DNA from: Octopus vulgaris
Lineage: Eukaryota
DNA length: 64,000 bases
NCBI GenBank assembly: GCA_951406725.2
Contig: OX597815.1
Coordinates: forward strand, 54,808,001 to 54,872,000
Reading direction: 5' to 3'
The notes beneath the pieces are model-generated. The model did not search any database and had not been told where the DNA came from. It saw nothing but the letters and a program-made list of their open reading frames with translations. This document shows, one piece after another, positions 12,751-59,892 of the stretch (within the stretch, counting starts at the first letter, position 1; the number at the start of each line of letters is the position of its first letter). The translations under genes and the position numbers were made by a program.

Positions 12751-12806
<56 letters not shown>

Positions 12807-12986
12807 ACAGGACTGTCACGTTAAGTTGACAGTATACAACCACTCTATCGCTCCACCACCGTACATATCTCTATGAGATATTTAGAAATTTAATATTTCT
12901 GATTTTGGTGATCAGTGAATAAACTTCACTGAAAATATATATATATTTGCGAAGTCTAGACAAATATCTTCAGCGAGCAGGCCTTT

Positions 12987-14642
12987 TTGAATTTTTTCCT
13001 CGGTGTCGGTTATTTTGTATTACGGTTATTGTGTATCACGGTTGTGAGTTCGAATTCGTTGGTTGAACCTGTTTCGGCGTGGTGAATTGTGGAAGTTCTT
13101 TTTTCGAAAATGCAAACCCAAACTTATGGAGGAGCGGCAGGCAAGGGTCTGGCTGCGAGCGAGTTGCAGTTGGAGGAAGTGGTCGTCGAGAAGGAAAGCC
13201 TGAAGGAATACTTCAACAGTTTCAAGAAGGAGGGTGACTGCCTGAGGGTCACACTACCAGAAGACGAAGTGAAAGAAGCAGAGAGACGTATTGTGACATA
13301 TAGAACGTGGAACGTGGCTTCGAAGAAAATAGAAGTGGCAGAGATGGAGGAAATTGAGAGGTGTTTGCAGGAGATTGAAGAAAAAGCTACCTTCTATAAT
13401 AGAGGTAGAAAGTACGCGACGGTGGTAGTTCATTTTGAGAACGAAGCTGAAGCAAAGAAGAACGCTACGAAAATACTGAAAAATGAAAAATGGCTATTAC
13501 TACCTAGCTATTGTGGAAGACGAGCGGTGAGAATAAGAATCAGCAAAATTTTATCAGAATTGAAAATGGAGCGAATTATAGCAGCAACAATATTTAACTG
13601 TAAGGAGAATGTCGAGATATTGAAGATAGAAAGGTCGAAGGAAGTAAAGTGGTGGGGTTATGCAGTACAAGCGTTGGTACACATAACCATGCCAGACATG
13701 TATAACATCCCAGAAGAGTTGGTGTTCCCCGACGACACACGACTCAGAGTCGTGGTAGAGGGGAGACCCCCAGTGTGCTACACATGTAAGACTAGAGGCC
13801 ACATGAAGGATGTGTGTCCGAAAAAAAAAGTACAAGAGGAGATGATAACATTGGAGGCTCTGACAGAGGAATTGCAAATGGCGAATGTAGAAGAAGAAAT
13901 TGTGAATACAGATAATGTGGAAAGTGGTGACAAGTTGGTGAAGGAGGAAGAAAAGGAAAGAACAGAAGGAAAAGAAGGTAGAAAGAGAACGCGGGTGGAA
14001 TCACCACCTAAAGTACAAATAAAGAAAAAAGCGAAAAAGAAGACTACCGACGAGATGGAGGATCGAACGTACGAAGAGAAGGATGCAGAAGCGAAAGCGA
14101 GTGAACCGGCAAATTTAAAGGCAGGGGAAGAATGGGACAGAAGAGTGGAAGAGCAGTTAAAAGTATGTAAGGAAGGAGGAAGACCCAAGGGCGTTCATCT
14201 CAAAGTGGTAATATTGTACAAGAAGGACAAAGAATTTGAAAAGAAGTTAGCAAATAAGAAAAGTTTAATCAGAGTAAAGTTAAACCCCAAAATATTTGAT
14301 GACCAAGTGAAGGCAGAGATTGTGGAAAGAGAGACAATGATGAAATTGAAAAGTGTGTTTTCGGCTGTATGCGTAATGCAATATATCCGTTTTGACAGTT
14401 TGCCAGCTATTGTAGACCAGGAGAGGTTACTCGATCACATTACAGATGAACGCCCAGTATAACAAAATTGTATTTTAAATGAAACTGCGAGCTTGGGGAA
14501 CTCGTAAGACATTCCATTAACCCGTTATAAATAATTCATTATCATACCATACTTTTCGATTTTTTTATTATATGTACCCCATGTCCTGTATTGTAATGTC
14601 CCCTCTTAATTCGGGCCATCGTGCCTATAATAAAGATTTCAC
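12987..14642 (+). mobile_element. ORF1/Gag-only non-autonomous retroposon, copy 1
   Basis: 19-bp TSD CTTCAGC(G/T)AGCAGGCCTTT at 12968-12986 and 14643-14661. Single ORF, no RT, AATAAA near the 3' end. Confidence 0.8.
13110..14462 (+). CDS. LINE ORF1/Gag-like nucleic-acid-binding protein (RRM-like region + CCHC zinc knuckle), 450 aa
   Basis: Uninterrupted ORF from the first ATG at 13110. RGRKYATVVVHFENE is RNP-like; EGRPPVCYTCKTRGHMKDVC = C-X2-C-X4-H-X4-C (13776-13817); E/K-rich linker. Architecture resembles Tx1/L1-type ORF1. Confidence 0.8.
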   Translation: MQTQTYGGAAGKGLAASELQLEEVVVEKESLKEYFNSFKKEGDCLRVTLPEDEVKEAERRIVTYRTWNVASKKIEVAEMEEIERCLQEIEEKATFYNRGRKYATVVVHFENEAEAKKNATKILKNEKWLLLPSYCGRRAVRIRISKILSELKMERIIAATIFNCKENVEILKIERSKEVKWWGYAVQALVHITMPDMYNIPEELVFPDDTRLRVVVEGRPPVCYTCKTRGHMKDVCPKKKVQEEMITLEALTEELQMANVEEEIVNTDNVESGDKLVKEEEKERTEGKEGRKRTRVESPPKVQIKKKAKKKTTDEMEDRTYEEKDAEAKASEPANLKAGEEWDRRVEEQLKVCKEGGRPKGVHLKVVILYKKDKEFEKKLANKKSLIRVKLNPKIFDDQVKAEIVERETMMKLKSVFSAVCVMQYIRFDSLPAIVDQERLLDHITDERPV

Positions 14643-14861
14643 CTTCAGCTAGCAGGCCTTTGATGATGGGCAAGATCCAGAAACATGCATGTCTCTAGAT
14701 GCAGGCCTAGCTGTTGGGGGTGTTTGTCTCCCCTTCGTAAATATATAAGGACACAGGAAATATGTCAAGGCCGACAGGAAGCGTCGATGCTTCCTAGGGC
14801 TAAACAGCGGTGGTGTAATTCCTTTACAGGACTGTCACGTTAAGTTGACAGTATACAACCA

Positions 14862-14904
<43 letters not shown>

Positions 14905-26959: not shown

Positions 26960-27525
26960 TTTCTACGCTGGTGACAAGGCCCGAAATTTGGGGGAGGGGT
27001 CAGTCGATTAGATCGTAAATGAAATTAATTTATCGACCCCGAAAGGATGAAAGGTAAAGTCGAACTCAGCGGAATTTGAATTCAGAACGTAAAGACAGAC
27101 GAAATACCTATTTCTTTACTACCCACAAGGGGCTAAACACAGAGGGGACAAACAAGGACAGACAAACGAATTAAGTCGATTACATCGACCCCAGTGCGTA
27201 ACTGGTACTTAATTTATCGCCCCCGAAAGGATGAAAGGCAAAGTCGACCTCGGCGGAATTTGAACTCAGAACGTAGCGGTAGACGAAATACCTATTTCTT
27301 TATTACCCACAAGGGGCTAAACATAGAGGGGACAAACAAGGACAGACATAGGTATTAAGTCGATTACATCGACCCCAGTGTGTAACTGGTACTTAATTTA
27401 TCGACCCCGAAAGGATGAAAGGCAAAGTCGACCTCGGCGGAATCTGAACTCAGTATGTAGCGGTAGACGAAATACCGCTAAGCATTTTGCCCGGCGTGCT
27501 AACGTCTTTGCCAGCTCGCCGCCTT
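26960..27525 (-). mobile_element. Triple tandem/nested SINE, 184-bp period
   Basis: Junction GACGAAATACC|TATTTCTTTA at 27108 and 27292; the single full head ends near 27525. Confidence 0.85.
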
Positions 27526-43883: not shown

Positions 43884-44390
43884 AACGTAAGGGGGATCAG
43901 CCATCTGAATGTGGCTAGGGACAGGGCGGGGTGGTGGGGGTGTTACTGATGCTTTTAGCCCCAGGCGATCATCAACGTCACCAGAAGGACTGACACCATA
44001 TCAGTGTCCTTGTTTGCCTGTAAAGGGAGGTCATCCTCCCTCGAAGATACGGATACTACATACGGACCGGTTTCGAGGTCATTGCCTCTTATCAACGTAT
44101 GGTAAGTACCGCTCTTCGATGAAGGATTCCCTCTACAAGCAACATATATAAGGTTTTTCACAGTAACTACTGTCACTGATGTAGAAAAACTGTCTGAAAA
44201 CAATAATAAATCTCTGAACGAGATACCCCGCCCTGTCCCTAGCCACATTCAGATGGCTGATTCCCCTTACGTTGTCGAGCAGTTACTGTTTATATCTCGT
44301 TCAGAGATTTATTATTGTTTTCAGACAGTTTTTCTACATCAGTGACAGTAGTTACTGTGAAAAACCTTATATATGTTGCTTGTAGAGGGA
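43884..44390. mobile_element. Retrozyme-like element (family B relative) with inverted partial copy
   Basis: 43884-44225 antisense unit plus 44226-44390 inverted segment; shares TTTAGCCCCAGG and AAAGGGA.GTCATCCT.CC with the 352-bp array. Confidence 0.8.
44059..44101 (-). ncRNA. Type I hammerhead ribozyme motif, U3-A8 core variant
   Basis: CATACG-TTGATAA-GAGG-CAATGA-CCTC-GAAA-CCGG-TC-CGTATG. Confidence 0.75.
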
Positions 44391-55605: not shown

Positions 55606-55611
<6 letters not shown>

Positions 55612-56332
55612 GAATTTCTAAATCTCTCGTAGAGACCTGTACGGTGGTGGGGCGATAGAATGGTTGTATACTGTCAATCTAACAAGAACGTCACAGTAGG
55701 GGGTACACCACCGTTGTATAGCCCTAGGAGGCATCGAACGCCTCCTGACAGCTTCGACTCATTTTTCCCTGTGTCCTTATATACATATACGACGGGGAGA
55801 CAAACACCCCCAACCGCCAGAACTGCATCTAGGGACACCGTGTTTCAGGATCATTGTCCTTCATCGGCCTAGAGTAGCAGACACCGGTCGGCTGGTGATA
55901 TTTGTCTGGACTTCTTATCTGTATATATGTAAACTCAATGAAATCTATTCACTGATTATCAAAATAAGAAATATTGAATTTCTAAATCTCTCGTAGAGAC
56001 CTGTACGGTGGCGGGGCGATAGAATGGTTGTATACTGTCAATCTAACAAGAACGTGACAGTAGGGGGTACACCACCGTTGTATAGCCCTAGGAGGCATCG
56101 AACGCCTCCTGACAGCTTCGACACATTTTTTTCCCTGTGTCCTTATATACATATACGAAGGGGAGATGCAGTTCTGGCGGTTGGGGGTGTTTGTCTCCCC
56201 TTCGTATATGTATATAAGGACACAGGGAAAAAATGTGTCGAAGCTGTCATGAGGCGTTCGATGCCTCCTAGGGCTATACAACGGTGGTGTACCCCCTACT
56301 GTCACGTTCTTGTTAGATTGACAGTATACAAC

Positions 56333-56340
<8 letters not shown>
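55606..56340. mobile_element. Retrozyme-like element family A: 364-bp unit, ~1.5 tandem antisense copies plus inverted segment
   Basis: Unit restarts at 55970; 56164-56340 is inverted; (TA)n on both sides. Confidence 0.88.
55828..55873 (-). ncRNA. Type I hammerhead ribozyme motif (family A)
   Basis: TCTAGG-CCGATGA-AGGA-CAATGA-TCCT-GAAA-CACGGTG-TC-CCTAGA. Confidence 0.8.
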
Positions 56341-56373
<33 letters not shown>

Positions 56374-56533
56374 CGTATATTTGCCATCTCAATATGGCTA
56401 CCCCTAAGGGTGGATGCTACTGTAGTTTTTAGCCCCAGGAGGACACACTCCTCCAGCTGGCCATAGATACACTTTCTGTGTCCTGTCAGTATTTGCAAAG
56501 GGAAGTCATCCTTCCCGTCTTCAACTTATGATA

Positions 56534-56578
56534 CACACGGACTCGAGTTTCGAGGTATTCACCTCTCGTCAGCGTGTG
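56534..56578 (-). ncRNA. Type I hammerhead ribozyme (further minus copies at 56886-56930, 57237-57281, 57588-57632)
   Basis: CACACG-CTGACGA-GAGGT-GAAT-ACCTC-GAAA-CTCGAG-TC-CGTGTG: full consensus core and three helices. Confidence 0.92.
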
Positions 56579-57954
56579 ACAATCATAGTTGTCTGCGAGA
56601 ATTAGATTTCCTTCACAAATACTTATACTTTTTCCAGCGTCCACTGTCGCTGATATTGAAAAAGTGAAATCAAACAATGATAAATATCAAAGTGAGTTAT
56701 ATACAGTAGCGGTAACACATCGTGACGTATATTTGCCATCTCAATATGGCTACCCCTAAGGGTGGATGCTACTGTAGTTTTTAGCCCCAGGAGGACACAC
56801 TCCTCCAGCTGGCCATAGACACACTTTCTGTGTCCTGTCAGTATTTGCAAAGGGAAGTCATCCTTCCCGTCTTCAACTTATGATACACACGGACTCGAGT
56901 TTCGAGGTATTGACCTCTCGTCAGCGTGTGACAATCATAGTTGTCTGCGAGAATTAGATTTCCTTCACAAATACTTATACTTTTTCCAGCGTCCACTGTC
57001 GCTGATATTGAAAAAGTGAAATCAAACAATGATAAATATCAAAGTGAGTTATATACAGTAGCAGTAACACATCGTGACGTATATTTGCCATCTCAATATG
57101 GCTACCCTAAGGGTGGATGCTACTGTAGTTTTTAGCCCCAGGAGGACACACTCCTCCAGCTGGCCATAGACACACTTTCTGTGTCCTGTCAGTATTTGCA
57201 AAGGGAAGTCATCCTTCCCGTCTTCAACTTATGATACACACGGACTCGAGTTTCGAGGTATTCACCTCTCGTCAGCGTGTGACAATCATAGTTGTCTGCG
57301 AGAATTAGATTTCCTTCACAAATACTTATACTTTTTCCAGCGTCCACTGTCGCTGATATTGAAAAAGTGAAATCAAACAATGATAGATATCAAAGTGAGT
57401 TATATACAGTAGCGGTAACACATCGTGACGTATATTTGCCATCTCAATATGGCTACCCTTAAGGGTGGATGCTACTGTAGTTTTTAGCCCCAGGAGGACA
57501 CACTCCTCCAGCTGGCCATAGACACACTTTCTGTGTCCTGTCAGTATTTGCAAAGGAAGTCATCCTTCCCGTCTTCAACTTATGATACACACGGACTCGA
57601 GTTTCGAGGTATTCACCTCTCGTCAGCGTGTGACAATCATAGTTGTCTGCGAGAATTAGATTTCCTTCACAAATACTTATACTTTTTCCAGCGTCCACTG
57701 TCGCTGATATTGAAATGTGGCCAGCTGGAGGAGTGTGTCCTCCTGGGGCTAAAAACTACAGTAGCATCCACCCTAAGGGTTAGCCATATTGAGATGGCAA
57801 ATATACGTCACGATGTGTGACCGCTACTGTATATAACTCACTTTGATATTTATCATTGTTTGATTTCACTTTTTCAATATCAGCGACAGTGGACGCTGGA
57901 AAAAGTATAAGTATTTGTGAAGGAAATCTAATTCTCGCAGACAACTATGATTGT

Positions 57955-57999
57955 CACACGCTGACGAGAGGTCAATACCTCGAAACTCGAGTCCGTGTG
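57955..57999 (+). ncRNA. Type I hammerhead ribozyme (second plus copy at 58307-58351)
   Basis: CACACG-CTGACGA-GAGGT-CAAT-ACCTC-GAAA-CTCGAG-TC-CGTGTG; predicted cleavage after C57993. Confidence 0.92.
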
Positions 58000-58654
58000 T
58001 ATCATAAGTTGAAGACGGGAAGGATGACTTCCCTTTGCAAATACTGACAGGACACAGAAAGTGTGTCTATGGCCAGCTGGAGGAGTGTGTCCTCCTGGGG
58101 CTAAAAACTACAGTAGCATCCACCCTTAGGGGTAGCCATATTGAGATGGCAAATATACGTCACGATGTGTTACCGCTACTGTATATAACTCACTTTGATA
58201 TTTATCATTGTTTGATTTCACTTTTTCAATATCAGCGACAGTGGACGCTGGAAAAAGTATAAGTATTTGTGAAGGAAATCTAATTCTCGCAGACAACTAT
58301 GATTGTCACACGCTGACGAGAGGTGAATACCTCGAAACTCGAGTCCGTGTGTATCATAAGTTGAAGACGGGAAGGATGACTTCCCTTTGCAAATACTGAC
58401 AGGACACAGAAAGTGTGTCTATGGCCAGCTGGAGGAGTGTGTCCTCCTGGGGCTAAAAACTACAGTAGCATCCACCCTTAGGGGTAGCCATATTGAGATG
58501 GCAAATATACGTCACGATGTGTTACCGCTACTGTATATAACTCACTTTGATATTTATCATTATATATATATATATATATATATACATACATACATACATA
58601 CATACATACATACATACATACATACATACATACATACATACATACGCACATACA

Positions 58655-59638: not shown

Positions 59639-59887
59639 CAATAGTAAATCTCTGAACGAGATATAAACAGTAACCGCTCGACAACGTAAGGTGTACTAGC
59701 CATCTGAATGTGGCTAGCCATCTGAATGTGGCTAGCCACTGGGGGTGGGGTGTTACTGATGCTTTTAGCCCCAGGCGATCAACGTCACCAGATGGACTTT
59801 AGACACTATCTCGGTGTCCTTGTGTTATTTGCAAAGGGAGGTCATCCTCCCTCGAAAACCTAAGTACTACATACGGACTATAGTTTC

Positions 59888-59892
<5 letters not shown>
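59638..59892 (-). mobile_element. Truncated retrozyme-like element (same subfamily as 43884-44390)
   Basis: Clear homology to the 43884 element; cut inside the ribozyme, retaining GAAA-CTATAG-TC-CGTATG; (TA)n flanks. Confidence 0.8.

Follow-up and report, generated by a model that had tools for sequence, protein, structure and literature searches.

Non-LTR retrozymes of metazoans have been described from coral, mussel and axolotl, where each short tandem unit carries a type I hammerhead and where expression and circular RNAs were shown (PMC7229834). The units measure 350-390 nt in mussel and 330/350 nt in axolotl. Circles as templates and Penelope-like elements (PLEs) as candidate mobilisers have already been proposed in the same publication. 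For vertebrate retrozymes, mobilisation by PLEs and an origin from them were proposed as well, and their status as non-autonomous PLE derivatives was argued from co-occurrence and pLTR trees (bioRxiv 10.64898/2026.07.22.740005). Insertion ends are treated in the main text of neither publication, and the movement of animal retrozymes was previously tied to PLEs by co-occurrence and shared motifs only.

PLE insertions themselves are composed of 5'-truncated partial tandems, often together with an inverted 5'-truncated copy (Craig 2021, PMC8557442). They carry a tail of 30-40 bp, often at one end only, and microsatellites serve as targets (PMC8557442). In AT-rich DNA both strands are nicked by a purified PLE protein, and cDNA synthesis then begins at two internal positions which bound the tail (Frangieh 2024, PMC11167929). 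The mechanism by which PLEs produce insertions that are inverted and tailed is given as still undefined in the publications consulted here.

The window analysed here is a 64-kb stretch of DNA from Octopus vulgaris, located at C2:54808001-54872000 of the assembly. It contains a locus of 352-bp units whose family is real, young and mobile and represents a new retrozyme of an already known class. Taken alone this family is an ordinary new retrozyme; its value lies in the insertion record, which links its spread with twin priming by a PLE. The fixed start sites, the strict rule of one end of each type and the common template of the two arms provide insertion-level evidence both on the link between retrozymes and PLEs and on the formation of inverted, tailed insertions. 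We consider it likely that 352-nt monomers of this young, dispersed non-LTR retrozyme are circularised and inserted in TA runs by a PLE reverse transcriptase (RT)-endonuclease which primes twice.

The literature search covered few subscription papers or repeat databases, and within this scope no paper on the 352-bp family, on a retrozyme end rule or on the cassette described below was found. The initial annotation of this DNA had not recognised the family as described. The class itself is described, including mussel members of 350-390 nt (PMC7229834).

Structure of the 352-bp locus

The locus consists of two back-to-back arms whose 5' ends meet centrally and whose 3' ends both enter TA tracts. 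The left arm (56370..57715, minus strand) comprises 3.8 units read leftwards, and the right arm (57718..58561, plus strand) comprises 2.4 units. Both arms are 5'-truncated, and their head-to-head joint holds 2 extra bases (57716..57717). One full monomer of 352 nt, from cut to cut as located by the descriptor scan, spans 57994..58345 on the plus strand. Unit base 1 is here defined as the first base past the cut (window 57994). In this numbering the left arm runs from unit base 231 at its 5' end (57715) to a short site at unit base 170 (56370), and the right arm runs from unit base 77 to a long site at unit base 215-216. The sequence of ~45 nt between the two end sites (unit 171-216), here named the tail, is present at the right-arm end (58516..58561, plus strand) and absent from the left-arm end.

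On the left the locus is bounded by a (TA)16 target tract (56338..56369), which is also the end of a neighbouring element of a 364-bp family, and on the right by a (TA)n and then (TACA)n target tract (58562..58654). The initial annotation had described near-identical units flanked by (TA)n, and this was confirmed with 98-99% matched units in both arrays and TA on both outer sides. It had also described the units as permuted at the ends, but this permutation is not free: each outer (3') end falls on one of two set positions in the unit.

Six type I hammerheads, and none beyond these six, were found across the whole window by a descriptor scan. Four are located on the minus strand at 56534..56578, 56886..56930, 57237..57281 and 57588..57632, with predicted cuts after 56540, 56892, 57243 and 57594, respectively. 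Two are located on the plus strand at 57955..57999 and 58307..58351, with predicted cuts after 57993 and 58345. The hammerheads at 56886..56930 and 57955..57999 carry the family-common letter in loop II. In 20 Markov-shuffled windows the descriptor gave 2 loose matches in total, none with stems as long as those of the locus. Additionally, the Rfam check proposed in the initial annotation was run, and all six hammerheads matched RF00163 over the full model (32.2-32.8 bits, E 2-3e-5). A scan of the window at the Rfam gathering score (34) returned no hammerhead because these scores fall just below it. The six type I hammerheads in 352-bp units claimed initially are thus borne out by the descriptor scan, the shuffled controls and RF00163. 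They were also called perfect, which is an overstatement: stem III is limited to 2 bp with a palindromic loop, UCGA, at its end, and it does not form in the predicted circle. Rfam microRNA matches were hairpin or TA artefacts far below the cut-offs.

The monomer has a predicted folding energy of -118 kcal/mol (z = -5.9 relative to shuffled sequences). When it is folded as a circle, p is ~0.5-0.67 for stems I and II, and stem III stays unformed. A palindromic stem III loop is a known trait of hammerheads which work better as dimers (PMC4209133). The units have a GC content of ~43% and are non-coding, as annotated initially, with no frame of at least 120 aa inside them. No ORF for an RT plus GIY-YIG endonuclease was present within the unit at the window locus or across the 79 loci examined. 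LTR, PBS and PPT likewise appear to be missing from the unit, the ends of which are set by internal sites. A TATA-like box at unit 265-272 (58258..58265, plus strand), ~50 nt before the core, is a candidate promoter, and an AT box occupies the equivalent place in two related families.

At the sequence level the 352-bp family is a non-LTR retrozyme: it has a hammerhead in each short tandem unit, is non-coding and dispersed, and shows target duplications of 11-13 bp. This agrees with the identity assigned by the initial annotation. The family resembles the metazoan retrozymes, as presented in the main text of PMC7229834, in its type I hammerhead per short tandem unit, its unit size, its GC content, its highly self-paired non-coding monomer, the 2-bp stem III with tetraloop, target duplications of more than 4 bp and the presence of PLEs in the same genome. 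It differs in that expression and circles were shown for those retrozymes, whereas the octopus circle is a prediction. The back-to-back arms, the two fixed ends and the TA targeting are undescribed in that main text, in which the words "inverted" and "microsatellite" do not occur.

Hammerhead viroids and viroid-like circular RNAs share with the octopus unit the size and, here as predictions, the self-paired circle and processing by hammerheads. Unlike them, the octopus unit carries the ribozyme in one polarity only, is genome-encoded and spreads via DNA copies. The term viroid-like replicon used initially is not supported, since the hammerhead occurs in one polarity only per unit and nothing points to RNA-to-RNA replication. 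The 352-bp family works like a PLE passenger and is neither an autonomous PLE nor a viroid-like replicon.

Copies of the family and their insertion ends

The 34-nt core is present in 437 exact copies in the 2.8-Gb assembly (control 0), and a similarity search with the whole unit gave 2948 first-look candidates, the best 40 of which were scored. The copies are dispersed over most large contigs, so the copy-number check confirmed the dispersal that had been expected. In total, 79 loci were examined. A first set of 39 was selected by whole-unit similarity and a second set of 40 by the exact core; the latter was drawn from 100 listed places and includes all 33 new ones on contigs C1 and C2 and 7 of the 12 new ones on C3. 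Arms reach 2.1 kb, and the hammerhead cores of the first set were intact in 116 of 117 cases.

Mean divergence was 1.7% between and 0.6% within loci (78 loci, with the duplicate L174 dropped). The family is regarded as young on the basis of these values, in line with the recent activity postulated initially. Substitutions were rarer in the hammerhead (0.35% vs 1.1%); this rate was left unused as evidence because half of the loci had been picked by their exact core. The window locus carries a private haplotype, for which no parent was found among the 40 best-scoring places. Loci L172 and L174 represent one and the same insertion with two arms, found twice in opposite orientation at a distance of ~1 Mb, and a duplicated copy is contained in L203; both cases may be segmental duplications or assembly duplicates.

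The sequence was contained in 20 of 24 listed sequencing runs, from 10 studies with 7 organism labels. Among the 24 listed runs, none of those containing the unit is recorded as RNA, which provides no evidence either way. Contigs of the runs X1, X5, X7 and X10, guessed to be RNA, cover the unit without joints. A 383-nt contig of X5 corresponds to one unit plus about a word length, as would result from tandem DNA and from a circle alike. Compared with a neighbouring high-copy repeat, X1, X10 and X5 showed no excess of the unit over the large run X15; contig depth cannot rank expression, and poly(A) selection would lose circles.

The outer ends of the 79 loci were located at unit base ~170 (short) or ~215-220 (long). 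Inverted 5'-truncated copies and partial tandems were present, with 36 of the 79 loci being two-armed. Among these, 31 had one short and one long end and none had two ends alike. The first set contained 14 two-armed loci with a clean short and a clean long end and 2 with a long and an eroded short end (16 in total). In the second set the pair was short plus long at 17 of 20 loci, two of the 20 being duplicates; one end was odd at the remaining 3, and none were alike. For ends drawn independently, 31 successive discordant pairs would have odds of ~0.5^31. Single-armed loci mostly ended short, with 20 short and 3 long ends in the first set (23 loci) and 15 short, 3 long and 2 other ends in the second (20 loci).

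The targets were AT-rich or microsatellite DNA across both sets. Fifteen loci were inspected for target duplications. Duplications of 11, 12 and 13 bp were found at 3 loci with non-TA flanks, and the remaining loci showed TA tracts or no visible duplication. The 5' breakpoints varied among loci. At the central joint the arms overlapped by 1-16 bases in 21 of 33 cases, were blunt in 4 and were separated by 1-27 extra bases in 8. No poly(A) or simple repeat was found at the 3' end of the unit.

Two fixed outer ends combined with the one-of-each rule are, in the insertion record, a PLE signature. With the EN+ PLEs of the Neptune/Naiad type the octopus family shares the 5' truncation, the partial tandems, the inverted 5'-truncated copy, the one-end tail, the microsatellite targets and the two internal sites of RT start, as far as these are covered in the main texts (PMC8557442, PMC11167929). 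In contrast to these PLEs, the octopus unit lacks an ORF, its tail measures 45-50 nt instead of 30-40, and the repeat unit is the whole element with a full-size hammerhead where that of the PLEs is minimal. The Chlamys non-autonomous PLEs such as MRC1 are likewise non-coding passengers, inserted head to tail in several copies; as a rule their 3' sequence is also that of an autonomous family (PMC8557442), whereas no such partner was found for the octopus unit among the loci fetched. N-terminal-EN PLEs are reported there to lack canonical hammerheads, in contrast to the octopus family.

Intact candidate enzymes exist in the same genome. A young, near-identical PLE family was observed at L131-L146 (e.g. 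G000:C6:112992000-113001000). Many copies of its protein P0002 have intact frames of 781 aa with RT plus GIY-YIG domains (RVT_1 plus GIY-YIG; order RT-CxxC-GIY-YIG) and a Zn-finger-like motif as described for Neptune/Nematis. An upstream frame of 479 aa with coiled-coil-like character (P0003) overlaps that of P0002. The P0002 copies run into (TA)n from either of two end sites with a spacing of 38 nt, corresponding to a 38-nt tail. Single-armed P0002 loci showed 15 short and 2 long ends, and both of the two-armed loci, a sample of only 2, had one of each. These two-site ends, common to the PLE and the retrozyme, support the initial proposal of a PLE-type enzyme far more directly than it had been argued. 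A PLE RT-endonuclease acting in trans is the likely agent that pastes the retrozyme into TA runs, and the unit gives predicted cDNA start positions for such an enzyme.

No hammerhead core was found in the 3' repeat of the youngest PLE. GIY-YIG loci were fetched as 30, 16 and 20 stretches, some of them overlapping, from a family search in which the best 150 of 6136 first-look candidates were scored. No PLE with sequence of the 352-bp unit or the 364-bp family was found among these, and none carried the unit as its own terminal repeat. Two GIY-YIG loci with similarity to the unit contained separate TA-bounded or oppositely placed insertions; the match at L151 was rejected as a unit-bearing PLE for being a separate TA-bounded insertion. 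The tails of the two hammerhead families and the PLE showed no shared sequence or convincing shared fold. The octopus link to PLEs consists of the insertion signature, with no pLTR similarity to a resident PLE among the loci fetched. This differs from the vertebrate study, the text of which contains neither "tail" nor "internal initiation" (bioRxiv 10.64898/2026.07.22.740005). Minimal hammerhead cores located 3' of the endonuclease were observed in the older PLE families L151, L152, L161, L167 and L160. They sit 140-210 nt before the TA ends, a retrozyme-like spacing, and these families are candidate partners.

Template of the arms and alternative explanations

At 8 family-variable sites in 35 two-armed loci, the two arms agreed in 212 of 212 comparisons, while shuffling gave a mismatch of 27.6%. 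Since the arms never disagree, both derive from one RNA sequence and not from two drawn from a pool. Where three or more copies were available, family variants were fixed throughout the locus in 63 of 66 cases; where there were two, this held for 47 of 48. Among the private variants, 8 were present in every unit (up to 6 of 6), 72 in one unit and 6 in some. Locus-wide fixation of private variants requires a monomer bottleneck followed by re-amplification; the six partially shared variants hint at multimer templates or conversion.

No indel was found within 5 nt of the cut at 183 unit joints. Only 3 of 109 5' ends fell in unit bases 1-9, about as expected by chance and without a pile-up at the cut site, in a sample that is depleted for ends inside the hammerhead and omits four ends scored at base 1 (where the flanks run through the cut) and a few small internal pieces. 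The indel-free joints and the missing pile-up therefore point to a circle or an uncut multimer, and the joints speak against jumps of the RT from one cut linear monomer to the next. Copying of one arm from the other by fold-back was rejected, as the end of the long arm runs 45 nt past the start of the short arm. A second point against it is that the short-end arm is the longer arm at the window locus.

These data favour twin priming on a single unbroken RNA, which was probably a circular monomer. The rolling-circle copying of monomers assumed in the initial annotation is accordingly favoured by the fixed variants, the joints and the 5' ends, but it stays a deduction to which the six partial variants fit less well. 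In the proposed sequence of events the array would be transcribed, and the hammerheads, probably aided by dimer pairing of the palindromic stem III, would release monomers to be closed by a host ligase. The PLE protein would nick both strands of an AT-rich target ~11-13 bp apart. One nick would prime at base ~170 and, in about half of the events, the opposite nick at ~215-220. Each cDNA would circle the template for up to 6 turns and stop at random. A lone cDNA would be rejoined to the TA tract, while two cDNAs would be joined together, often via a 1-16-base overlap, so that the arms would stand back to back and only one end would bear a tail. If the circle step is true, a circRNA made by a ribozyme would here be copied into chromosomes in nature by rolling-circle reverse transcription.

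Less probable, though a serious competitor, is a course in which the same PLE machinery primes twice on an uncut linear multimer, with circles as by-products and arrays homogenised at the DNA level. The precise joints and the absence of a 5' pile-up fit such a multimer equally well. At base 332 of the window locus the units of one arm carry G,C,G,G and those of the other G,C, two series that are in register when counted from the outer ends, and L032 has a similar in-register partial variant in both arms at base 108. The base 332 pattern is not explained by a uniform monomer circle, because later conversion or a multimeric circle would be required. Moreover, an anole PLE favoured uncut RNA in vitro with the hammerhead being dispensable, as given in the main text of PMC11167929, and 8 of 9 Xenopus dimers remained uncleaved in vitro (bioRxiv 10.64898/2026.07.22.740005, main text). 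Against the multimer stand the 8 private variants fixed in all 3-6 units and the 63 of 66 fixed family variants, which require a monomer bottleneck, and the 72 single-unit variants, which argue against rapid homogenisation of arrays. Linear 5'-truncated copying alone would shorten arrays in each generation, yet arms of 2.1 kb exist. The private haplotype of the window locus, parentless among the 40 best-scoring places, also speaks against it. We clearly favour a monomer circle over an uncut multimer as the template.

It is improbable that the arrays are stacked pLTRs left by 5' truncation of an autonomous hammerhead-bearing PLE instead of an independent unit. Hammerheads are indeed known from PLE pLTRs, which also occur as tandem and inverted arrangements (PMC4209133, PMC8557442), Xenopus retrozymes match pLTRs (bioRxiv 10.64898/2026.07.22.740005), and minimal cores occur in 3' repeats of some older octopus PLE families. 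Yet the 352-bp units at the examined loci directly abut, cut to cut, and lack any intervening sequence, and no fetched GIY-YIG locus has the unit as its own repeat. An ancient pLTR origin of the unit may apply.

Slightly more improbable still is mobilisation of the RNA by another TA-targeting non-LTR retrotransposon, presumably of a Tx1/L1- or R4/Dong-like clade, with the inversion arising by L1-type twin priming. Twin priming is known from L1, and an ORF1-like cassette is associated with related hammerhead units. Such an element is contradicted by the lack of a poly(A) or simple-repeat 3' end, by two priming sites which are both fixed and internal, and by the same two-site pattern in the co-resident PLE; the cassette, with its own AATAAA end and duplications, acts like an insertion in its own right. 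An artefact of the assembly, or a satellite or palindrome that arose locally when DNA was duplicated in tandem and in inverted form, would suit a short tandem array in microsatellite-rich DNA but is largely refuted, and hardly conceivable, given the hundreds of dispersed copies, their fixed ends and varying 5' breakpoints, the target duplications and the presence of the sequence in 20 of 24 listed runs from 10 studies.

Sister families and an ORF1-like cassette

Directly left of the 352-bp locus, and sharing its TA tract, lies an element of a second family which was absent from the initial annotation. It has a 364-bp unit and two back-to-back arms (55607..56337) with the long end at 55607 and the short end at ~56337. 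A hammerhead with a CCGAUGA core is located at 55828-55873 on the minus strand, with the predicted cut after 55834. The ends of this family lie ~177 and 227-232 nt after the cut. A search gave 1753 first-look candidates, and copies were 92-97% alike. Of 19 two-armed loci, 15 had a short plus a long end and none had two alike, with a query that favoured long ends.

Older relatives of the 352-bp family, 67-75% alike, were observed at window 59640-59892 and 43890-44390: one is a TA-bounded single arm with half a hammerhead, the other a two-armed inverted copy. In a further hammerhead family at L164:1020-1100 (also L092 and L141), a nearly perfect stem I of 37 bp clamps the core.

A cassette of ~1.7 kb with one ORF for a knuckle protein and no RT is a frequent component of related hammerhead units; the 352-bp window array itself is without it. 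In the window the cassette is found in a unit resembling the 364-bp family (12802-14862), with an intact ORF of ~450 aa (P0001) at 13086-14462. P0001 contains a CX2CX4HX4C knuckle, and its Atlas look-alikes are of the CCHC/ZCCHC3 type at 0.90-0.93, to be read as a lead only. No homologous proteins of P0001 were found among those of 251-802 aa, the length range searched, and NCBIfam gave nothing. The ORF was rejected as the coding parent of the family, as it has no RT and belongs to a separate cassette with its own duplications.

The genome contains 19,797 first-look candidates of the cassette, many with open frames at 50-90% identity. Among the best 20 loci, 12 were flanked by 14-23-nt direct duplications which differed with the host family, and 14 sat just 5' of a hammerhead or hammerhead-like core from several different families. 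The cassette ends in its own AATAAA. Its duplications start ~25-30 nt downstream of an AT box that is present in three families, and this position, at the best 20 loci, suggests insertion at the transcription start of the retrozyme. The cassette thus looks like an ORF1-only LINE derivative targeting retrozyme units.

Tentatively, three tiers can be put together, in which a PLE twin-primes on a single hammerhead circle while an RT-less ORF1-only LINE derivative (ZCCHC3/Tx1-ORF1-like) homes to the retrozyme transcription start. Jointly taken it is possible, though somewhat doubtful, that the cassette, of which there are thousands of candidate copies, homes to a point 17-35 bases before the hammerhead core, borrows the promoter and rides along. 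If true, the three-tier reading would explain the spread of retrozymes as well as the long-puzzling inverted-plus-tail structure of PLEs.

The cassette also forms tandem runs of its own (L147-L150). A SINE-like repeat of 184 bp is present in 2.5 tandem copies at 27025-27476 of the window, and its end resembles the 3' end of the L147 tandem cassette.
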